Both the position numbers and the translations under genes were made by a program. The notes beneath the pieces are model-generated. The model worked only from the letters and a program-made list of their open reading frames with translations. It did no database searches and had not been told where the DNA came from. Shown here in pieces: positions 1-7,615 of a stretch of DNA of 64,000 nt (positions are counted from its first letter, which is position 1; the number at the start of each line of letters is the position of its first letter). This DNA is from a virus, in IMG/VR virus record IMGVR_UViG_3300049489_001303, positions 1 through 64,000 of that record; one strand, written 5' to 3'.

Positions 1-999
1 CATATCGGTGCCCCCACCCCCAACCATCTTGAGCACATCTTTCCAGGTCCTCAGCTTGGACACACGATGCACCGCGGCGTCGCAGTCTATCACGCCGACT
101 GACTTATACATCTTGCTCAGAGACCCCAGGCACCCGGCCACCCAGTTGCCATGATTGCTCATGGAACCTGAGGTGTCGATCACTGCATAGACTTTGGGTG
201 TGTAGGCGTGACGGCTGGGGAGTAGTATCACATCCCCACGCTCCTGGCGCCGAGAGATGCCGGCCATGTTGTAGTCGGTGCGTCCGGTGATCACCTGGCG
301 CAGTCTTCGACGTACCTTCACACGCCAGTCAAGACGGGGCAGCTTACCCTCCATGCGGGCCTCCGCCCACAGCTTCACCCCATTGGGCACCTCCCCACGT
401 CCCGACGACACAGCGCCCTGAACATCCGCAGCGATGGCATCCCGCAGGGCATCGGCACTCTCCTTATCAACCACACCCTCATCGACGCTACCGGGGGCAT
501 CCAGCTCCCATTCACCCTTCTCACCCCCCACCCCAGAGCCGTGGCATACAGAGATGTTGATCTTCCGGATCTCCACACTGTCGTAGTATTCCTCAGCAAT
601 GAGACCGTCAGGCTTACCAAGCATTGCAGGCATGATACTGTTAGGCAGCGCAGGGGTGATGTCGTCATTGATCTCCGCATCCGTGGCGTAGTTCCACGCC
701 TTGTGATGCCGATCGCCCTCCCTGTCGTTATGTTCCCTCAGCAGGTGCTCGAGCTCATGGCGCATGATCCCCTCGATGTGGAACTGGTGCTCCACAAAGG
801 ACTCGAGCGAATAGTACAGCCGCCAGTACTTATCCACCGCGAAAGTGGGAAACCCCACCTTCAACACTGGCGTGAGCGCAGCAAACCCCCGCGCATAATA
901 GGGGTATTTCTCAGCAGCCTTGAACAAGCCGGTGAAGATCACACTGTGGTCTCTCCCCTCCAGCTTGTTCGCCTCTTCTGTTATGTCTTTAGCATCCAT
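1..999 (-). CDS. Zincin-like metallopeptidase + VWA domain protein (DUF2201-like), truncated at window edge
   Basis: Not in the ORF track (open at the edge). Manual translation from ATG 999 gives MDAKDITEE...FAVDKYWRLYY...RHELEHLLREH...WNYATDAEINDD...YAVIDTSGSMS...GGGGTDM: HExxH motif plus DxSxS MIDAS motif. Confidence 0.88.
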   Translation of the reverse strand, partial: MDAKDITEEANKLEGRDHSVIFTGLFKAAEKYPYYARGFAALTPVLKVGFPTFAVDKYWRLYYSLESFVEHQFHIEGIMRHELEHLLREHNDREGDRHHKAWNYATDAEINDDITPALPNSIMPAMLGKPDGLIAEEYYDSVEIRKINISVCHGSGVGGEKGEWELDAPGSVDEGVVDKESADALRDAIAADVQGAVSSGRGEVPNGVKLWAEARMEGKLPRLDWRVKVRRRLRQVITGRTDYNMAGISRRQERGDVILLPSRHAYTPKVYAVIDTSGSMSNHGNWVAGCLGSLSKMYKSVGVIDCDAAVHRVSKLRTWKDVLKMVGGGGTDM

Positions 1000-1216
1000 T
1001 GAACAACCTCATCAGTTCTTTGGGGCTGAACCCCCTGTCACATACTACACACCTCACACCATCGTCGGGGTGATTAATGTCACAGTAGTCATCCACCTCC
1101 ATGTCAGTCACGTAACCCTCATCATTTATTTCCTTGATGGTAGCATACTCGACAACATGCTGTACATAGGTGAGCTCTGTCCCGCAGAGGGGGCAGTTGT
1201 ATTTTCGCTGAGTCAT
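989..1216 (-). CDS. Small zinc-ribbon protein
   Basis: CPLC...CVVC pair; overlaps both neighbours. Confidence 0.65.
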   Translation of the reverse strand: MTQRKYNCPLCGTELTYVQHVVEYATIKEINDEGYVTDMEVDDYCDINHPDDGVRCVVCDRGFSPKELMRLFNGC

Positions 1217-1413
1217 TTGAAGTCCTCTGTTGTGACGGCTCTGGTGTTGTATAAGGGCCTGTATTGAGCAACGATGGAGCTTCCTCCACAGCCATCACCG
1301 AAGGTATTGCCATCCCCACACTGGTTGGCACCAAACGTATCACCACCACCATAGGTAGTTCCGAAGGACTGACCATAACCAGTGGCGCTGTCAATATAAC
1401 GGTGAATGCTCAT
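1213..1413 (-). CDS. Gly/Asp-rich mini-protein (array member)
   Basis: MSIHRYIDSATGYG...GDGNTFGDGCGGSS; ATGA coupling on both sides. Confidence 0.65.
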   Translation of the reverse strand: MSIHRYIDSATGYGQSFGTTYGGGDTFGANQCGDGNTFGDGCGGSSIVAQYRPLYNTRAVTTEDFK

Positions 1414-1613
1414 GGGAAATCCCTGAGTGATATTTCAGTGTGGAGACCCCCACCGTCCCCGGTACCAGTTCCGAAAGGCCACCCAAACCCAAATCCTTTC
1501 GCTGACCCGCAGCTGGATCCGAACCCGTTGCCCTGACACCCGAAGCCATCGCCATAACCTGTCCCATTACCGTAGGTGAATGCTTCTTGTAAGTGGTAAA
1601 GGTGGACCCTCAT
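1410..1613 (-). CDS. Gly-rich mini-protein (array member)
   Basis: GNGTGYGDGFG repeats; ATGA coupling with GGAGG RBS. Confidence 0.65.
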   Translation of the reverse strand: MRVHLYHLQEAFTYGNGTGYGDGFGCQGNGFGSSCGSAKGFGFGWPFGTGTGDGGGLHTEISLRDFP

Positions 1614-1861
1614 TGCGTATCCTCCAGGAGCATCTTCTCACCCTCCCCATCACCGTGCAAATCCGTGTAGCCGTAAACATCGTCCCCACCACACCCGTAG
1701 TCGCCGTCTCCACAACCGTCTCCACTGATACCCGCATAGAATGAACCGAATCCGCAGCCATTCCCGTTTAACCGTGGGGTCGTAGTCCATTCATGGCCCC
1801 CTATGTGCTGATACCCGGCGCCGAATCGGGGGTAGGCATCGGTGATTGTTCGCAGAATCAT
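1610..1861 (-). CDS. Gly/Asp-rich mini-protein (array member)
   Basis: Start reassigned to MILRTITDAYPRFG (ATGA overlap with the upstream gene, GGAGGAG RBS). Confidence 0.7.
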   Translation of the reverse strand: MILRTITDAYPRFGAGYQHIGGHEWTTTPRLNGNGCGFGSFYAGISGDGCGDGDYGCGGDDVYGYTDLHGDGEGEKMLLEDTQ

Positions 1862-2034
1862 TGCGTCTCCTCCAAGCCAATGGGGTCGCCCTCGCCATCC
1901 CCACTGAGCATTCCGCACATGCCACACCCGGTGTCTGAGCTACCATCACCGTAACCACTGCCCATACCCCCACCAGCGGGGCCCCCAAAGTCGCCATTGC
2001 CGAAGTGGGGGAAATCATCTGTGATGATCTTCAT
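1858..2034 (-). CDS. Gly/Asp-rich mini-protein (array member, 58 aa, not in ORF track)
   Basis: Manual translation MKIITDDFPHFGNGDFGG...GDGEGDPIGLEETQ; paralogue of 2031..2237. Confidence 0.7.
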   Translation of the reverse strand: MKIITDDFPHFGNGDFGGPAGGGMGSGYGDGSSDTGCGMCGMLSGDGEGDPIGLEETQ

Positions 2035-2239
2035 TGTGTATCCTTGGGTTCAATAGATGCACCGAAGCCATCGCCATCGAGAACTCCACCTGAACCACAC
2101 CCCGCATCTGTGTCACCACCACCATACCCATTACCCGGGTCGTGGAACATGATATGCTCGCCACCGTAACCGTCACCGTCAGAACCACCAGATGGGCCGT
2201 TGCCGAAGTGGGGGAACTCATCTGTGATGATCTTCATTG
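1993..2239. repeat. 44-bp direct repeat (1993-2036 and 2196-2239, 2 mismatches) spanning gene junctions
   Basis: gcc(a/g)ttgccgaagtgggggaa(a/c)tcatctgtgatgatcttcattg read directly. Confidence 0.9.
2031..2237 (-). CDS. Gly/Asp-rich mini-protein (array member)
   Basis: MKIITDEFPHFGNG...SDGDGYG; ATGA coupling. Confidence 0.7.
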   Translation of the reverse strand: MKIITDEFPHFGNGPSGGSDGDGYGGEHIMFHDPGNGYGGGDTDAGCGSGGVLDGDGFGASIEPKDTQ

Positions 2240-2437
2240 CATCCTCCCAGCATCAAGACATTCACCAACACCGTTAGCGATGTCGTGAGGATTCTTAACC
2301 TCGCCCCCACCACCATCACCATCCCCGGGATCTCCATCCCCGTAGAGTTCCAGGGCACCTGCACCGTAACCGTCACCATCACTGTATCCAAAGTTGAGAC
2401 CATCACCGGTGTGTCTGTAATCGGTGTAGGTTTTCAT
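2234..2437 (-). CDS. Gly/Asp-rich mini-protein (array member)
   Basis: MKTYTDYRHTGDG...SDGDGYG; starts 1 nt after the ATPase stop. Confidence 0.7.
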   Translation of the reverse strand: MKTYTDYRHTGDGLNFGYSDGDGYGAGALELYGDGDPGDGDGGGGEVKNPHDIANGVGECLDAGRMQ

Positions 2438-2438
2438 G

Positions 2439-3515
2439 CTATTTCTTGAACAGCTGATCAGCCCCCGTCAGGCTGTCCACCAGCTTCCTCTTCTCGGGGG
2501 TCTGGGGGATTTCGATGTTGCTCTGTACAGCAGCACGAACAGCACGACGTGTGGCGACCAACGCCACGTCCTTGCGGGCCTTCACGAGCAGCTTGAACAG
2601 GTCACCCATGCGACCATAGGCCAGGGCAACAGACACCGCGGAGTTGAGGGACAGAGCGACGCGATCGCCGCGGGAGGGCAGCTCCACCTTACCATCCAAC
2701 AGGTCTTTGCCGTTGGGCAGCTCCGTGTCCGCGAGCCAGGCAGTAAATTCCGTGCACGCTGCTCCCCCCACCAGCCCGGAGATGCAGGCACGTACTTCCT
2801 TGTCCTTCACGCGCTCCGGACCCACCATCCCGAGCAGCTTGGACACAGCACTCCAGGAGCGTGGCGACGGCCACCCCCGCATCGTTGCAGCGCTCTCCTT
2901 GGGAGGATCGAGCAGAGCCGAAGGAGCATGGGAAATCCACCCTGTTACCAGAGCACGACCCTCTGCACCCTCATTGCCGCCGACTCCCGCAGTTCCCCAC
3001 CCACCCAGCTCACCGGCAATCCACTCCTCATTGTTGAGGGTCCAGTCCAGATGGCACCAGCGGTTAGCGGTCGCGGCGGACAGATCCGTAGGATCCGCGG
3101 CATACTCGGGGGGATTAGCGGCGCCAATGATCTTCACTCCCCGCAGGTCGAGGTCCACCACCCGGCGTTCCTGCACCACACGCAGCAGCGCAGCCTGAAT
3201 CGAAGGCGGTGCGCAGGTGAGCTCGTCGAGCATCAACCACGCCTCACCACCCTTATCCAGCGCTCCCCTCAACCGACGTGCCCACGGCGGCGGAGCCACC
3301 TCCACGCCACTGTCTGTCATGTAGGGCCGACCGAGATCAGTGGGATCCATTGTGGATCCTATCAACACCTCAATGTGCGCACCGGCATCCGCGGCCATCT
3401 TCGTGACAGCAGCGGTCTTGCCTGTCCCCGGAGCACCCCAGAGCAGCACAGGTATATCAGAAGCGATCAATTTGTTGAGTTCTTGCATTGTTTTAAATCT
3501 CTTTCTCACCCTCAA
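2439..3515 (-). CDS. MoxR/dynein-related AAA+ ATPase
   Basis: Walker A GAPGTGKT, Walker B LMLDEL, IIGAANP sensor I, ANRW arginine finger, PSPRSW sensor II. Confidence 0.92.
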   Translation of the reverse strand: MRVRKRFKTMQELNKLIASDIPVLLWGAPGTGKTAAVTKMAADAGAHIEVLIGSTMDPTDLGRPYMTDSGVEVAPPPWARRLRGALDKGGEAWLMLDELTCAPPSIQAALLRVVQERRVVDLDLRGVKIIGAANPPEYAADPTDLSAATANRWCHLDWTLNNEEWIAGELGGWGTAGVGGNEGAEGRALVTGWISHAPSALLDPPKESAATMRGWPSPRSWSAVSKLLGMVGPERVKDKEVRACISGLVGGAACTEFTAWLADTELPNGKDLLDGKVELPSRGDRVALSLNSAVSVALAYGRMGDLFKLLVKARKDVALVATRRAVRAAVQSNIEIPQTPEKRKLVDSLTGADQLFKK

Positions 3516-3724
3516 AGGGTGTCAGTTTCATCTAAGGAATAGCTGTAGCCACTCCCGGTATCCTTATCGGTTACGCCCCATTCATCGTAGTTGAAATCAT
3601 CATCAGTGCGGCTCTTCCAGGACCAATTGTGGTTTTCATCACTGCTGCCGTTACCATCCGCGTGACCGTAGTCAGAGCCATCTCCCGAGCAGTGGTTGAA
3701 GTCCACAAGGGTGCGTAGCATCAT
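3512..3724 (-). CDS. Gly/Asp-rich mini-protein (array member)
   Basis: MMLRTLVDFNHCSGDGSDYG; coupled to the ATPase. Confidence 0.65.
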   Translation of the reverse strand: MMLRTLVDFNHCSGDGSDYGHADGNGSSDENHNWSWKSRTDDDFNYDEWGVTDKDTGSGYSYSLDETDTL

Positions 3725-3936
3725 TCGGTCTCCCCCTCAGTGATCCCTGTGGACATGTGTACACGCCACTTGCCACCACCATCACCTGTCAGGATTCGAC
3801 CAAACTCCACGCCCTTACCCATCCCACTCCCCATGCCCCCACCAGAGCCTTCGCCAGCAAACTGGCTGTGGGAGAGCTTACCTACCTGCCCATCACCCAG
3901 GCGGGGTGTGTAGTCTGTGATTGTTCGTAGTCTCAT
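3721..3936 (-). CDS. Gly-rich mini-protein (array member)
   Basis: MRLRTITDYTPRLGDG; N-terminus matches 1610..1861. Confidence 0.7.
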   Translation of the reverse strand: MRLRTITDYTPRLGDGQVGKLSHSQFAGEGSGGGMGSGMGKGVEFGRILTGDGGGKWRVHMSTGITEGETE

Positions 3937-4082
3937 GGATACCACCTATAACGATCATCCGCATACGCCAGATTTACTGAGTCGTCATATTCGTGGTATT
4001 CCCCAACACCGCGAGTCACTCTTGCCACAACAGAAGAACCTCCCGCGCCATCGCCAAAAGCGGTACCGTCTCCCCAATTCAT
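3933..4082 (-). CDS. Gly/Asp-rich mini-protein (49 aa, not in ORF track)
   Basis: Manual translation MNWGDGTAFGDGAGGSSVV...RYRWYP; ATGA overlaps at both ends. Confidence 0.65.
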   Translation of the reverse strand: MNWGDGTAFGDGAGGSSVVARVTRGVGEYHEYDDSVNLAYADDRYRWYP

Positions 4083-4261
4083 ATATACCACCTATAAACC
4101 TGGGTAATCATCGGGGTTTCGGGTATCCACTTTTTTATAGAGGCTAAGCCTCCCCCCGCCAAATCCCCAAAGTCCGAACCAGCACCACGCCGATCTTCGG
4201 ACACAGACGAAGAACCCCCAACGCCGTCGCCGAAATCGTCGCCATCGCCCCACCGTATCAT
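4079..4261 (-). CDS. Gly/Asp-rich mini-protein (array member)
   Basis: MIRWGDGDDFGDGVGGSSSV; paralogue of 3933..4082. Confidence 0.65.
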   Translation of the reverse strand: MIRWGDGDDFGDGVGGSSSVSEDRRGAGSDFGDLAGGGLASIKKWIPETPMITQVYRWYI

Positions 4262-4482
4262 CGCCGCCACCTGTAGTTATCGAGATGCCTGAGGTTATAG
4301 AACGCTCCACTCTTACCCCCACCAAAGCGATCACCGAAGAAGTAGTATTCACCGGCTATGCCAAAGCCGCAGCCATGTTTTTCCCAGTCGTCGTTGCTGC
4401 TTATCAAACAGTCACCCTCTTCAGAGAAATCCTCGCCATCACCTCGCTGGGATGAAAAGTCCTGATCCAGACAAGCTCTCAC
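4258..4482 (-). CDS. Gly/Asp-rich mini-protein (first member of the array)
   Basis: GTG start after GGAGG; RGDGEDFS...GCGFG...FGDRFGGG. Confidence 0.6.
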   Translation of the reverse strand: MRACLDQDFSSQRGDGEDFSEEGDCLISSNDDWEKHGCGFGIAGEYYFFGDRFGGGKSGAFYNLRHLDNYRWRR

Positions 4483-4498
4483 TCTACCACCTCCCACT

Positions 4499-4531
4499 AA
4501 AAAAAGGACCCACAGAATTAACTGTGGGCCC
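4499..4531 (-). terminator. Rho-independent terminator
   Basis: GGGCCCACAG-TTAATT-CTGTGGGTCC followed by T7 on the minus strand. Confidence 0.85.
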
Positions 4532-4544
4532 CTCTCAATTTAGA

Positions 4545-4940
4545 TCACTTGCCGGCAGCGAGGAGAGTGTCCTCGGTCTTGCCGATCATCTTTTCCCACG
4601 CCTCCACGGACTCCGGACGGATCACGTCCAGCGTCTGATGTATGGCGTCAACCGGAACGTTGATGGGCCACAACCCAGCATCGCAGGTTGTGCTGTCGGT
4701 GGGGCCGTGGTGCACCAGCTGGCCGATGCCGTGCTCAGTGCCCCAGTATCTCAGGGTGGTGTAACGGGGGATAATCACCCAATTGTGCCCCCACTTCTCC
4801 ACATGCTGGATCTCTTCCGGCTTGGTGATGACTACGAAGCCGCGGCCGAACATGATGATGGAGTATTTGACCTCTCCATCTTTGGACAGTTCAGCGATTT
4901 CTTTCTTCTGGGCAGATACATCTTTTTTCTTTGCGCTCAT
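4545..4940 (-). CDS. Conserved small phage protein (DUF6948-like)
   Basis: IIMFGRGFVV...LRYWGTEHGIGQLVHHGPT resembles, from memory, a family often found next to GxG-rich ORFs; AAGGA RBS. Confidence 0.55.
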   Translation of the reverse strand: MSAKKKDVSAQKKEIAELSKDGEVKYSIIMFGRGFVVITKPEEIQHVEKWGHNWVIIPRYTTLRYWGTEHGIGQLVHHGPTDSTTCDAGLWPINVPVDAIHQTLDVIRPESVEAWEKMIGKTEDTLLAAGK

Positions 4941-5289
4941 TCTTGTTATTCCTTTTTTCTTTTGGTTCTTCAATGAGTGGGAGAGACAGTTCTCCCGGAC
5001 GAAGTCTTGTACCGCACTATTGCTGATTTTTTGAAACTAGAGCTGAACTCGCAGGGCCTTGGGTATTTCACGGCCTTTAAGTATCCAATGGGTGTTCAAG
5101 GTACCGAAGCTGTTGAATACTCCCACGGTATCAAACACGTAGAAATCTCCCCCAGAGCCGTGCCTACTCCGAGTATCCCCAAAGCCTCGATTTGGTGTAT
5201 AGCAGATGAACTCAGTACTTCTCAGAGGATCTTTGCTGGGGGCTTTCAGCTCGTCGTGGTCGTAGAGGCACTCAGCGATGGGGCTCATT

Positions 5290-5841
5290 TCATACTGCCA
5301 TGTGGCTCTTGCACATCGGACATACAATGCTACCAGAGGCCGTGTAGAGCATGGCGTAGTGCTGTGAAACAGTATTGCAATTGAAACACATGTACTGACC
5401 GGCCGGCACCCTGATGATAGTGTTGATGTGAAGGCGCTCAATCTCAACCTTCAACTTGTAGATCTCGGCCTCTGCCTCTTTCAGCTTCAGCTTGAGACTC
5501 TTTCTCCCACCCAGCTCCCCTTTATGCTCTGCAGCCACATCGGAAGCCACCCACACCGTTGCGTTGCAGTTCTTGCGCGTCTTACGCACAAACCCATTTT
5601 CCATAACACGCCCAGCCAACACCAGCTCACGACGCCGCGGCACCTGGGTGGAGACGTGCAGCTTCAGCCCCACCTGGATCTCATCGTCGGTGGCGCCATG
5701 TATACCCTGCAGCTTCAAGAAGCTGTATACCTGTTCCCGCAACATAGCTGCGTTGGGCTCCACCTTCTCCGCAGCTGATTTTGATGTTTCACTATCCCCT
5801 TGAAAGGGGAGCTCAAGTGATTTTGTGTCGAGCCATCCCAT
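5290..5841 (-). CDS. Winged helix-turn-helix protein with C-terminal coiled coil and Zn ribbon
   Basis: TSKSAAE...GATDDEI...PRRRELVLAGRV...RKTRKNCNATVW; CFNC..CPMC. Confidence 0.65.
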   Translation of the reverse strand: MGWLDTKSLELPFQGDSETSKSAAEKVEPNAAMLREQVYSFLKLQGIHGATDDEIQVGLKLHVSTQVPRRRELVLAGRVMENGFVRKTRKNCNATVWVASDVAAEHKGELGGRKSLKLKLKEAEAEIYKLKVEIERLHINTIIRVPAGQYMCFNCNTVSQHYAMLYTASGSIVCPMCKSHMAV

Positions 5842-7615
5842 GTATCACCTCTTTTCTTTTAATCCCCGTTTGTCGATGCGTGCTAACACCATGCACGCCT
5901 TCGCTGCCGCCTCCAGCGTCTTAGGGCCGGGAGGCACACGGATGGCAGCCAGCTGGTTGTTGTCTTTGTTGTCCCACACCGCCACCCACTCGATGTCGTC
6001 CGTCTCGTAGTTGAATCCGGTGTGGAGACTGTAGTCCTCCAGGCCCTTGGGTCCCACATAGTCGTCGCTGGGTTCCATCTGCAGGCGCCGTACGTGCTTC
6101 CAGCCGGCAGCTTCAACCGCGTCGATCAGCTTGGTTACTTTGGCCACAGCTCTACTGCGGGCCTTGGGGTCGTTAATCAGTGTGTCCAGTTTCATTCATC
6201 CTCCCAATACCGCGTACGAAACTCACGGTTCTCGTCATTGAGGTAGCGCCACCCATGGCAAATGCCCATCACAAAACCTTCGTGTGTGATCATGGTAGGC
6301 CACCTCACCACTACTTCCCCCGTGGCAACCCCAGTGATAAAGTCTTTGCCGCCCATGTCCGGAGCGCCCTTGTACGCTTCAACTACCTTCCCCATCTCAG
6401 GGACGTGTGGTTTCCAGGGCATTACTCGCCCCTCGGTGGATACTTCTTCTGCAGCTTTCTCGATGCCAGGAACAGCTTCTCCACACTGACGTAAACATCA
6501 GCGCTGAAGGATTTCTGCAGCTTCTTCAACAGACGGATGTCGTCGGGGGTGAGGAGCTCCTCATCATCCGTAAGCCCCGCCTGCGTTGCATGAAATTCTA
6601 CCAGTGCACGGTAGTCTTCGCGGGAAGCTTCCAATAGCCTCTTCAGTGTCCCTTCCAGATAGCAGACGCGGTCATGCAGTTTCCAGTTCTGCTCGTGGAT
6701 CACTTTGCTGTGCAGCTTCTCGAGGAAGAGGCTTACAGAGGACATGAACAGCAGCGCAGACAGAACAATTATCCCGGTAATCATGATTTCTTCTCCCATA
6801 GCTTCCGCACCAGCACTGCTTGTTCCTGCAGTACGCCAAAGGTGCTCTCCCAGATGCTCTCCACAGCGGAGAGGCGTTTCTGCAGAGATTCTTTCTCACG
6901 CTCCAACTGCACGTGGTTGATAGCTGCTACGAACATCCAGTAATAGTCTTTGGGGTCCTGGGCCCTGTTCAGGCGCTTGAGAGTGCGCACGTTCAGTGTA
7001 CAGTCGTAGGGTATTTCCTCGCCACGTTTCAGGATCTCATGTCCGGTGCGAATCTCCTGCATAGTTTCTGGTGGGAGCCAACGGGCGTCTTCCAGGTACT
7101 TGTCGTAGAGTTCTTCGTCGGTCATGGCACCTTCTCCATCACAAGGTCACTGTGTCTCAGGATGCTGTCAATCATCCAGTCATACCCGCAGAAACCTGCA
7201 GACGGTGCTTTGGGCATCGACGGGTTTGAGATCTGTGCTGTGACCTCCGCCACCCACCCATCATCGAACCGATAAGACCAACTCTTCGGGGCGTCCATGA
7301 TCCCCAGCTTCTCCACTGTCTTTCGGGACACATTTCGCACTTCGTAGTGGGGCTCGTCTGCTCCCGACCAACGCCCATTCCAGGATTTCACCACAGGCAT
7401 TGTCAGACTGAACCTGACTTTGAACTTGCTGGGCGGTTTATACAACCCGCACTTCTTTTCTGCGGCAAGCACACAAGCCTCGAGGGTCTCTCCCGAGAAC
7501 ACCCCCGCCCCTGTGTTGATAACTACATCTTTGGCGTCCCAGTACGTGACGACGCTCAAAGGGGCCACATTGAGCTTCTTGCAGACCGCTCTCAGGCGGT
7601 CGTCTATTGTTTTCT

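Follow-up and report, generated by a model that had tools for sequence, protein, structure and literature searches.

To characterize the left end of the window, the 64,000-nucleotide stretch that we analyzed (positions 1 to 64,000 of IMG/VR record IMGVR_UViG_3300049489_001303), we examined the reading frames, start sites and ribosome-binding sites of a large uncultured phage whose contig spans 170,144 bp. We found eleven small genes (mini-genes) for glycine-rich proteins, five before and six after a MoxR-type AAA+ ATPase gene, together with a Cys-rich ORF, a zincin+VWA (DUF2201) gene that runs off base 1 at the contig end, and a gene for a predicted small beta-barrel protein (Table 1). Ten of the twelve junctions from 989 to 4482 are 4-nt ATGA start/stop overlaps, with GGAGG/AGGTGG ahead of the start.

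Table 1. Features at the left end of the window; E values for the mini-genes are from a profile of the family searched against the genome.
Position	Strand	Feature	Size	Characteristics
4545..4940	-	Small beta-barrel protein, predicted Sm/LSm-like fold	131 aa from ATG; ORF open to 4973	Motif RxWGTxHGLGQ...GPT
4499..4531	-	Terminator-like hairpin	10-bp stem, 6-nt loop	Stem GGGCCCACAG/CTGTGGGTCC, then T7; read directly from the sequence, not listed by a consensus scan
4258..4482	-	Mini-gene 1	74 aa	GTG start 7 nt after GGAGG; leader MRACLDQDF..RGDG; E 3e-13
4079..4261	-	Mini-gene 2	60 aa	WGDGDDFGDGVGGSS subfamily
3933..4082	-	Mini-gene 3	49 aa	WGDGTAFGDGAGGSS subfamily
3721..3936	-	Mini-gene 4	71 aa	Leader MRLRTITDYTPRLGDG
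3512..3724	-	Mini-gene 5	70 aa	Leader MMLRTLVDF; Asp/Asn-rich and less Gly-rich than the others
2439..3488	-	MoxR-class AAA+ ATPase	349 aa from ATG; alternative TTG start at 3515	Walker A GAPGTGKT, Walker B LDE; Pfam AAA_5 3e-9; phrog_1297 1e-39
2234..2437	-	Mini-gene 6	67 aa	Leader MKTYTDYRHTGDG
2031..2237	-	Mini-gene 7	68 aa	Leader MKIITDEFPHFGNG
1858..2034	-	Mini-gene 8	58 aa	60% identical to mini-gene 7; leader regions are an 80%-identical 71-nt DNA repeat
1610..1861	-	Mini-gene 9	83 aa	Leader MILRTITDAYPRFGAG
1410..1613	-	Mini-gene 10	67 aa	
1213..1413	-	Mini-gene 11	66 aa	CGDGNTFGDGCGGSS subfamily
989..1216	-	Cys-rich ORF (CxxC...CxxC), not Gly-rich	75 aa	Coupled to both neighbours; only sub-threshold zinc-finger hits
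1..999	-	DUF2201 protein: N-terminal zincin-like domain plus VWA domain	About 50 C-terminal residues lost at contig end	HELEHLLREH; MIDAS motifs DTSGS and GGGGTD; Pfam DUF2201_N 3e-13; phrog_1314 1e-29

A preliminary description of this locus, made from the sequence alone, had reported eleven Gly/Asp-rich ORFs of 49-83 aa in a 5 + 6 arrangement around the ATPase, with two motif subfamilies. Our analysis confirms that observation, including the size range and the split. An M-[KR]-x-[IL]-T-D...G[DN]G leader is present in 5-6 members, and [WC]GDGxxFGDGxGGSS occurs in mini-genes 2, 3 and 11. However, the longer form of mini-gene 1 in that description would start at 4497, the Cys-rich ORF was not counted, and the barrel gene was missed. 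In addition, the run is not one unbroken coupled unit; a strong hairpin followed by T7 separates the upstream barrel gene from the first mini-gene.

To ask if the mini-genes are protein-coding, we examined their periodicity, codon usage and family relationships. Other frames are also open here because of composition; the chosen frames are those with starts, ribosome sites, coupling and family likeness. GG autocorrelation peaks at 6, 12 and 18 nt, with nothing at 5 nt. In the paralogues of two related contigs, L100 and L101, conserved terminal residues vary mainly at third codon positions, and one conserved Leu uses both TTR and CTN codons. About 60 head-to-tail ORFs of 52-85 aa stay open and Gly-rich in DNA of 34% GC (L101 and a further contig, L102). 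A profile of the family finds all 11 mini-genes in the genome at E from 6e-8 to 3e-18, plus weak hits in a second array. Their composition is G 23% and D 11%, with 7.6 GxG per protein, while the large genes of this phage have G 8%. The peptides are predicted to be disordered (AF2 pLDDT 46 with a 33-row alignment; pLDDT 0.34 for the ESM Atlas model of mini-gene 7). We found no sequence homologue of the window's peptides among 1.8 billion representative proteins, and none outside this contig.

We next examined the three larger partners. We found about 500 homologues of the ATPase, and its Walker motifs are invariant in an alignment of 24 sequences. When the truncated DUF2201 protein was aligned with six full-length orthologues, HExxH, EINDD, DxSxS and GGGGTD were invariant. 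The barrel protein had no Pfam or PDB sequence hit, but was modeled by AF2 with a pLDDT of 85; the best structural match to this model was 3by7_A, an Sm-like protein (Z 6.7, rmsd 3.0, 75 residues aligned), and the ESM Atlas returned viral Sm_like/DUF6948 clusters. Barrel homologues lie beside the ATPase in related contigs L004 (two copies), L005, L007, L098, L100 and L101 (two copies).

To test if the association of these genes extends beyond this phage, we compared the neighbourhoods of related ATPases. In seven lineages, this one and six others, the ATPase and the barrel gene sit with Gly-X mini-genes (1 to 24 per locus), with DUF2201 wherever the contig reaches it. The mini-genes directly flank or interleave these genes in L005 (4), L006/L007 (about 9), L097-99 (5-7), L100 (22) and L101 (24), whereas L004 has one, about 3 kb away. 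The order of the three large genes differs between contigs. In an all-against-all blastp of the flanks, these three genes were the only shared ones, except for three further L004 genes and one L098 gene that match elsewhere in this genome. None of 89 remoter MoxR-family ATPase loci (1.05 Mb) has a mini-gene or the barrel. The seven carriers form one ATPase clade (SH-aLRT 98), and the association therefore represents one evolutionary event, not many. A class of mini-genes with an MDEY leader maps to one subclade, and a K..H..G[DN]G class mostly to others. Kinship between the window's family and the MDEY-type families rests on composition, architecture and context, not on an alignment. This genome also has a second, very distant MoxR-like ATPase (contig 90,564-91,781) next to a terminase-like ORF, with a second DUF2201 protein (93,598-95,172) about 1.8 kb further on and no mini-genes among them. 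The mini-gene-associated pair is therefore a specialised copy.

The preliminary description had proposed that a variable peptide repertoire is bound, processed or deployed by the AAA+/VWA-peptidase pair, and had named arrays independent of MoxR/VWA genes as evidence that would count against this. Such arrays were in part observed. Related arrays lie far from any MoxR/VWA gene in this genome, at 155,193-156,814 and 165,377-165,819 on the other strand; L102 has about 36 genes with no MoxR within 13 kb, and another contig, L103, has 4 genes beside SNF2, DnaB and DnaG. However, no genome seen here has mini-genes without the module in the same or a sister contig. Of the specific roles that had been suggested, polyglycine-II rods are not supported, as the peptides are predicted to be disordered, and RiPP-like precursors are weakened for reasons given below. 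Overall, that earlier interpretation is supported only in part: the peptides are a real diversified family whose link to the MoxR/VWA-zincin pair is more than local accident, while any interaction remains inferred.

From these data, we conclude that the eleven ORFs are genuine genes of a fast-diversifying phage multigene family, and tentatively propose that this family belongs to an accessory module with three folded partners inherited together, the Sm-like barrel protein, the MoxR-class ATPase and the DUF2201 protein. We found no published description of this four-part block. The products are acidic (median pI 4.4, mean net charge about -6) and predicted to be intrinsically disordered, and each has a core of Gly-X dipeptide repeats between a short lineage-specific N-terminal leader and a short conserved C-terminal tail that also carries the ribosome-binding site of the next gene. 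X is mostly Asp, Ser, Thr, Tyr or Phe in the window, and mostly Asp, Asn, Tyr or Ser in relatives. The disordered proteins would be the clients, or exchangeable cofactors, of the machine. By analogy with CbbQ/CbbO, Rea1 and integrin-type VWA domains, the MIDAS site would capture an exposed acidic residue (the recurrent G-D-G or RGDG, or the leader), the AAA+ ring would supply force, and the zincin domain could clip leader or tail, resulting in a varied set of Gly-rich peptides or complexes acting in the non-structural phase of infection. Our analyses demonstrate that the genes are real and form a family, that their products are predicted to be disordered, that the catalytic motifs are intact, and that the four parts are retained together across deep divergence; without experimental or transcript evidence, binding, cleavage, timing and target are inferences only.

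The strongest competing explanation, which we nevertheless consider doubtful, is that the mini-proteins are host-takeover or anti-defence factors that act on their own in a plastic, non-structural region where tandem duplication is easy, and that the MoxR/DUF2201/barrel genes are merely old neighbours inherited from the same ancestor. A single origin on the ATPase tree suffices; common descent plus local tandem duplication could explain the association without any functional tie. The distant arrays and the replication and early-type genes of the neighbourhoods (Prim-Pol, sigma factor, ligase, SNF2, DnaB) are consistent with this view. L004, which keeps the module with only one mini-gene nearby, counts against our own proposal. 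However, across lineages whose ATPases are only about 44-54% identical, and whose flanks otherwise share nothing, the mini-genes stay immediately adjacent to or between the three large genes despite reshuffled order. It is unlikely, but possible, that the leader instead acts like the T4 capsid targeting sequence (CTS), so that the peptides would be packed into the head, clipped and injected with the DNA as a variable anti-defence cargo, as with T4 IPI-IPIII. The T4 CTS is MKTYQEFIAE, and T4 internal proteins share only that leader (PMC8442874; PMC13716836). Window leaders read MKTYTDYRH, MKIITDEFPHF and MRLRTITDY, each with an [ILY]-x-[DE] triplet like the T4 protease site, and the leader pattern is almost confined to this family in the genome (4 of 6 hits among 4,769 candidate starts). 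Iyer et al. proposed that phage MoxR and peptidase-vWA act in virion assembly and processing (PMC7824862). However, the match is short and was noticed after the fact, T4 internal proteins are basic (PMC8442874) whereas these are acidic, and the MDEY-class leaders of relatives do not resemble the CTS. Furthermore, the genes lie among non-structural genes, the family of the prohead protease could not be assigned, and the terminase-side MoxR/DUF2201 pair has no mini-genes.

The remaining readings appear less likely still. The Gly/Tyr/Asn/Asp/Phe-rich cores could act like eukaryotic low-complexity, kinked-segment domains or high-glycine-tyrosine keratin-associated proteins, building a reversible matrix that the AAA+ ATPase dissolves or shapes. 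Composition, repeats such as GYGNGYG and GFGDGFG, predicted disorder and the high dosage that many copies would give are compatible with this, and a distant feature-space neighbour carries the KRTAP family on 16% of its members, which is a lead only. However, direct evidence is lacking, dosage would favour uniform copies while the cores are highly diverged, and strong net negative charge would oppose self-association unless cations are present. For RiPP-like precursors, the conserved leader and tail around a hypervariable core resemble prochlorosin or cyanobactin precursor families, a zincin lies next door, and Cys-Gly and Ser-Gly motifs occur in several window members. Yet no cyclodehydratase, lanthionine synthetase, radical-SAM or other tailoring enzyme was recorded in any of the eight neighbourhoods, Cys and Ser content is inconsistent between members, and phage genomes with 20-60 precursors and no tailoring enzyme would be unprecedented. 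We consider it very unlikely that the arrays are non-coding, either as compositional ORFs in G-rich DNA or as repeat RNAs such as VIPR-type guide arrays of GGY/NN units. Phage VIPR arrays are built of YNNGG repeats (bioRxiv 10.64898/2026.04.26.720920), the GGY-rich DNA leaves other frames open, and in L100 81% of Gly codons in the mini-genes are GGY, against 49% in its large genes. However, the text of the VIPR paper does not mention an ATPase, AAA or vWA gene, and no RRM/RAMP-like protein was noticed here, the one conserved small protein being predicted to fold as an Sm-like barrel. In addition to the 6-nt period and the wobble-position changes described above, every unit has a start, a ribosome site and a stop fused to the next start, the frequent Trp codon TGG breaks any Y rule, and all four Gly codons are used in L101 in the same proportions as in its large genes.

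The contig that carries these genes, of which the window is the first 64 kb, is a 170,144-bp linear IMG/VR viral contig that CheckV rates as 95% complete, with a GC content of about 55% and with nearly all of the genes in the window on the minus strand. The phage is far from cultured ones. To assess how close it is to cultured phages, we searched positions 1-6000 with blastn against 50,697 phage records and found no match. Most of its large proteins have no PHROG or Pfam family, and an RNA-polymerase beta-like protein is about 30% identical to those of Vibrio phage D181 and Salmonella phage Arash. A search of these two nearest cultured relatives (by RNA-polymerase subunit), performed without a positive control, gave no match to the ATPase of the window.

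We next examined the gene order at the locus. Ten of the twelve junctions are ATGA overlaps preceded by GGAGG or AGGTGG, and a strong intrinsic-terminator-like hairpin that a simple consensus scan missed lies between the barrel gene and the first mini-gene. The preliminary description had reported eleven small ORFs of 49-83 aa, five before and six after the ATPase, with a shared TD...G[DN]G leader and a [WC]GDGxxFGDGxGGSS block, and this observation held in each of these respects, the leader reading M-[KR]-x-[IL]-T-D...G[DN]G. The interpretation offered there, that a variable peptide repertoire may be bound, processed or deployed by the ATPase and VWA-peptidase pair, was partly supported, as set out below.

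Coordinates of the features discussed in the text (own contig unless another contig is named; L003 and L110 are extracted sections of the own contig, L100 and L102 are contigs of other phages)
Feature	Coordinates	Strand	Position in extracted section	Remarks
Sm-like barrel gene	4545-4940/4973	-		131/142 aa
Terminator-like hairpin	4499-4531	-		10-bp stem, T7 tail
Mini-gene 1	4258-4482	-
Mini-gene 2	4079-4261	-
Mini-gene 3	3933-4082	-
Mini-gene 4	3721-3936	-
Mini-gene 5	3512-3724	-
MoxR-class AAA+ ATPase	2439-3488	-
Mini-gene 6	2234-2437	-
Mini-gene 7	2031-2237	-
Mini-gene 8	1858-2034	-
Mini-gene 9	1610-1861	-
Mini-gene 10	1410-1613	-
Mini-gene 11	1213-1413	-
Cys-rich gene	989-1216	-		75 aa
DUF2201 gene	1-999	-		runs off the contig
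Second AAA_5 ATPase	90,564-91,781	+	L110:2564-3781	next to a terminase-like ORF
Second DUF2201_N + DUF2201 (VWA) protein	93,598-95,172	+	L110:5598-7172	about 1.8 kb beyond the second ATPase; acidic low-complexity insert
Second mini-gene array	155,193-156,814	+	L003:3193-4814	7 genes
Asp-[Thr/Ser/Ala] repeat protein	164,373-165,380	+	L003:12373-13380	335 aa
Third mini-gene array	165,377-165,819	+	L003:13377-13819	2 genes
Three coupled paralogous ORFs	169,168-170,023	-	L003:17168-18023	94-100 aa
Two divergent MDEY-type arrays of L102	L102:2-4464 and L102:8415-11597	+ and -		about 36 genes in the two arrays together
Peptidase_M10 (matrixin-type zincin) gene of L100	L100:11792-12331	+

The two enzyme families of the module were assigned from profile matches and motifs. 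The ATPase matches Pfam AAA_5 with 37.4 bits against a cut-off of 22, as well as phrog_1297, and its Walker A (GAPGTGKT) and Walker B (LDE) motifs are invariant in 24 homologues. A VWA-domain partner gene lies in the same gene run, and 84 of 100 related loci carry a DUF2201-like gene. The last gene of the run matches DUF2201_N with 50.5 bits against a cut-off of 23.2, as well as phrog_1314. This gene is cut at the contig end before the last MIDAS Asp, and its Pfam DUF2201 score is 18.7, below the cut-off of 26.4. DTSGS and GGGGTD are present, and full-length orthologues have the complete MIDAS set. The residues HELEHLLRxH, EINDD, DTSGS and GGGGTD are invariant across seven orthologues, and from these sequences both the zincin and the MIDAS sites look functional.

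To ask what kind of protein the 131-aa upstream gene encodes, we predicted its structure and compared the model with known folds. The model is confident (pLDDT 85) and the top 30 or so structural matches are nearly all Sm/LSm proteins, but at modest scores, with Z at best 6.7 (to 3by7_A), a Foldseek E value at best 0.01, and viral Sm_like clusters among its ESM Atlas neighbors at TM 0.48-0.51. There was no sequence-family hit, and tblastn of this protein against the 50,697 phage records found no match. We refer to the protein as Sm-like without claiming membership of that family.

Since composition alone leaves other reading frames open in this region, we looked for independent signs that the small ORFs are genes. 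A family profile found all eleven in the ORF set of the genome at E values from 6e-8 to 3e-18. Autocorrelation of GG dinucleotides peaked at 6, 12 and 18 nt, a Gly-X dipeptide rhythm, and was flat at 5 nt in all arrays. In the larger arrays of relatives, conserved terminal residues change mainly at third codon positions (TAC/TAT, TCA/TCG, ACG/ACA), and a conserved Leu uses both TTR and CTN codons. In addition, in DNA of 34% GC from two contigs of other phages (L101 and L102), about 60 head-to-tail ORFs of 52-85 aa stay open and Gly-rich, which cannot be a compositional accident. We also considered whether the C-terminal tails of the window's peptides reflect only the ribosome site of the next gene. 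This explains the last 4-5 codons, but it does not explain the 12-14 conserved tail residues of L100, another of these contigs, which change at wobble positions. From these sequence-based lines of evidence we take the genes as real.

The eleven products contain 23% Gly and 11% Asp, have a median pI of 4.4, a mean net charge of -5.8 and 7.6 GxG motifs each, whereas the large proteins of this phage have 8% Gly. No Pfam, PHROG or NCBIfam model matches them. An AF2 model from a 33-row alignment of relatives had no secondary structure (pLDDT 46), and the Atlas model of mini-gene 7 has a pLDDT of 0.34. They are best described as acidic Gly-X repeat proteins, predicted to be intrinsically disordered, with a short conserved leader and tail. 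Neither the Gly period of 2 residues (6 nt) nor the irregular model agrees with a polyglycine-II helix bundle of the gp38 adhesin or snow-flea antifreeze type, one of the possibilities raised in the preliminary description.

To identify relatives, we first searched with the peptides themselves. A word-indexed homolog search with the 11-member alignment hit only this contig. An exhaustive profile search of 1.84 billion representative proteins returned only self hits and two Bacteroidota-type repeat proteins matched through a DADGDGFG motif, which we regard as motif-level matches and not as kinship. A degenerate DNA pattern for the MDEYxGFW leader of relatives found nothing in IMG/VR. A scan of IMG/VR for close relatives with the ATPase alone also found nothing, and a metagenome scan with the ATPase alignment, whose P-loop pattern is generic, gave at least 9 distant loci. 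In contrast, a homolog search with the ATPase found about 500 homologs, the best near 50% identity, and retrieval of their contigs (handles beginning with L) proved decisive, as it revealed the same kind of mini-gene around the orthologous ATPase. An NCBI MAG contig (P0026) shows nine coupled small genes after the ATPase and was left out of our counts.

Gene order around the ATPase in contigs of relatives
Locus	Gene order
L005	mini, barrel, one unrelated 110-aa gene, ATPase, mini, DUF2201, two minis
L007/L006	barrel, mini, one gene, DUF2201, two minis, ATPase, then about six more minis among other genes
L097-99	mini, one gene, ATPase, mini, two genes, two minis, DUF2201, two minis
L100	barrel, 14 minis, ATPase, DUF2201, 8 minis
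L101	8 minis, two genes, ATPase, two barrels, 4 minis, DUF2201, 2 minis, one gene, 11 minis
L004	two barrels, ATPase, one gene, DUF2201, one MDEY-like mini about 3 kb further on

Each lineage has its own leader and its own tail. In the window these are MKIITDxFPHFGNG and EDTQ, in L005 xIKTGLNHGNGDG and RFKNV, and in L100 MKTPxRIxPPHxPxGDG and STEKLxxxYRSTI. In L097/L007 the leader is MDEYxGFW and the tail YRYRGLKNG or HPTKDHREG, and in L101 the leader is MDEYLxxW and the tail NIRxSNNG. The MDEY leader and a G[YW]S-x-P-x-K-E-x-[IH]R tail are shared between phages of 34% and 59% GC.

To test how specific the link between these parts is, we searched with a profile of the barrel protein, which found it beside the ATPase in every one of these lineages and nowhere else. 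Among 89 loci carrying remoter members of the same ATPase family (1.05 Mb, most with a DUF2201 gene), none has the barrel or a single Gly-X mini-gene, even under a permissive rule. In an all-against-all blastp of the flanks, the ATPase, DUF2201 and barrel genes are the only shared ones, with the exception of three L004 genes and one L098 gene that match elsewhere in this genome. On a quick maximum-likelihood tree of 94 ATPases, in which several branches are long, the seven carriers form one clade (SH-aLRT 98) with the non-carriers L008 and L010 as successive outgroups. Within this clade, the MDEY-leader lineages L101, L097 and L007 form a subclade, and L100 pairs with L005. We conclude that the four parts have traveled together since one origin, through a divergence that replaced the rest of the neighborhood and reshuffled gene order.

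However, one origin is one event, and arrays also lie away from the module. This genome has a second and a third array on the plus strand, coupled by ATGA or 8-nt overlaps, in which the related genes have leaders such as MRTLTDNLPHRGDG, mostly carry an N-terminal ...RGDG motif, and give weak profile hits. The second array is followed by a DUF6745 protein (E value 1e-18) and by a membrane protein with HEGSH that weakly matches the DUF3267 zincin family. The third is coupled by ATGA to the gene for a protein with a lipoprotein-type signal (LVAGC), about 130 residues of Asp-[Thr/Ser/Ala] dipeptide repeats and a C-terminal domain. In other phages, L102 has about 36 MDEY genes with no MoxR within 13 kb, and the contig L103 has four beside SNF2, DnaB and DnaG. 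As L102 comes from the same sample as L101, and L103 is close to L097, these may be the same or sister phages. Thus, we saw no genome with arrays but without the module, although we equally cannot exclude one. The two L102 arrays, at the end of a 69.5-kb contig of 34% GC, are the largest seen, and contig ends falling inside such arrays suggest that they break assemblies.

Of known systems, the closest is the phage MoxR AAA+ ATPase with its metallopeptidase-vWA co-chaperone (PHROG 1297 and 1314; DUF2201_N/DUF2201), noted in group 2.2 jumbo phages by Iyer et al. 2021 (PMC7824862). The same two protein families occur there as neighbors, and in cyanophage S-TIM5 the two genes are directly adjacent and follow Hsp20. 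What differs here, and in one clade only, is that the pair is joined by an Sm-like barrel protein and interleaved with arrays of Gly-X mini-genes. The published proposal is a role in virion assembly, whereas the copy in the window lies among non-structural genes. This genome also has a second, very distant AAA_5 ATPase and a second DUF2201 protein beside a terminase-like ORF, with no mini-genes among them. This second pair fits the published idea of a virion-assembly pair and leaves the pair of the window as a specialized copy. Apart from the MoxR and peptidase-vWA pair in jumbo phages, our literature searches found a phage MoxR needed against a host defense system (PMC13716836) and the VIPR guide-RNA arrays, and no description of Gly-X mini-gene arrays or of the four-part block.

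The simplest model follows from the logic of cellular MoxR/VWA remodeling pairs (CbbQ/CbbO, NorQ/NorD, RavA/ViaA and the MIDAS of Rea1) and of the p618/p892 pair of ATV, in which an AAA+ ring works with a VWA adaptor whose MIDAS ion binds an acidic residue of the client. ATV is cited in PMC7824862. By analogy with CbbQ/O, Rea1 and integrin-type domains, the acidic proteins would be clients or exchangeable cofactors, a MIDAS ion would capture an acidic residue of the client, the AAA+ ring would pull, and the attached zincin could trim leader or tail. These systems act on one folded client complex, whereas the candidate clients here are dozens of diverged mini-proteins that are predicted to be disordered, and the adaptor carries its own zincin domain. 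A complex prediction of a full-length DUF2201 with its neighboring mini-protein from L097, each with an alignment but without controls, gave ipSAE values of 0.00-0.01, which says nothing either way. Our analysis demonstrates the gene family, the catalytic motifs of the enzymes (with the complete MIDAS set seen in full-length orthologues) and the joint inheritance of the four parts, while translation, binding, cleavage and any oligomeric state of the barrel are inferred. We hold this model only tentatively, as the favored one among several.

The main alternative, that the mini-genes are independent accessory genes that are only old neighbors of the module, is doubtful but remains possible given the single origin and the distant arrays. 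It is unlikely that the peptides are capsid-targeted cargo like the T4 internal proteins IPI-IPIII, which are small, variable proteins sharing little beyond a roughly 10-residue N-terminal leader. The T4 targeting sequence is MKTYQEFIAE and one window leader is MKTYTDYRH, but the resemblance is short (MKTY... and an [ILY]-x-[DE] triplet) and no family could be assigned to the prohead protease. In addition, T4 internal proteins are basic and folded, number three per genome and have no MoxR/VWA link, whereas these are acidic, predicted disordered Gly-X repeats in arrays of 10-36 that also have a conserved tail, and any presence in virions would be conjecture. A role as condensate formers, also unlikely, rests on analogy with low-complexity Gly/Tyr domains and with high-glycine-tyrosine keratin-associated proteins, which are small Gly/Tyr-rich proteins encoded by tandem multigene families. 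A weak Atlas neighbor carries the KRTAP family on 16% of its members, but no homology is claimed, and these are bacterial-virus proteins and strongly acidic.

Two further readings are less likely still. Alignments of the peptides show the conserved leader with a variable core expected of RiPP precursors, a possibility raised in the preliminary description, but no tailoring-enzyme Pfam family appears in the window's gene run or in eight related neighborhoods. Least likely are non-coding arrays such as the VIPR guide RNAs of phages (bioRxiv 10.64898/2026.04.26.720920), which are likewise tandem and rich in GGY with variable positions in between. VIPR units are YNNGG repeats with a period of 5 nt, are non-coding and need a RAMP protein. 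The period here is 6 nt, frames are open and coupled, and variation is at wobble positions. No RRM or RAMP family was noticed in the neighborhood, without a dedicated search, and the one conserved small protein is predicted to fold as an Sm-like barrel.

A more far-reaching hypothesis, which we consider unlikely but not excluded, is that a clade of phages runs a previously unknown kind of protein system. In this view, a library of tens of hypervariable, disordered Gly-X mini-proteins would be loaded onto, trimmed by or deployed by a dedicated machine of an Sm-like ring, a MoxR AAA+ motor and a zincin-VWA adaptor. The varied cores could then act as a repertoire against host factors, for example as decoys or inhibitors of defense proteins or proteases, with the conserved leader and tail as the handles that the machine recognizes. 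Phage MoxR/vWA pairs are widespread yet have no known client, and the only functional hints are the predicted virion-assembly role (PMC7824862) and one screen in which a phage MoxR was needed to overcome a host defense (PMC13716836). A clade in which the pair is accompanied by a barrel protein and by arrays of one peculiar protein type offers concrete candidate clients. The arrays are also striking in themselves, as a locus can hold up to about 36 back-to-back genes. Two contigs from one sample, which may or may not be one phage, together hold about 60, amounting to several kilobases of coding capacity spent on predicted disordered Gly-X repeats with fast-changing cores, a pattern that usually marks an arms race.

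At the far end of the contig we observed three coupled paralogous ORFs (MQL.../MLL..., two of the three ending YRCN) with 15-21% Gly, which would lie just downstream of the truncated DUF2201 gene if the genome is circular or permuted. In L100, a Peptidase_M10 gene lies a few kilobases from the module. Finally, 81% of the Gly codons in the L100 mini-genes are GGY, in comparison to 49% in the large genes of the same contig, whereas L101 shows no such bias. One possible cause is avoidance of G-runs or of internal Shine-Dalgarno-like GGAGG in Gly-dense tracts.
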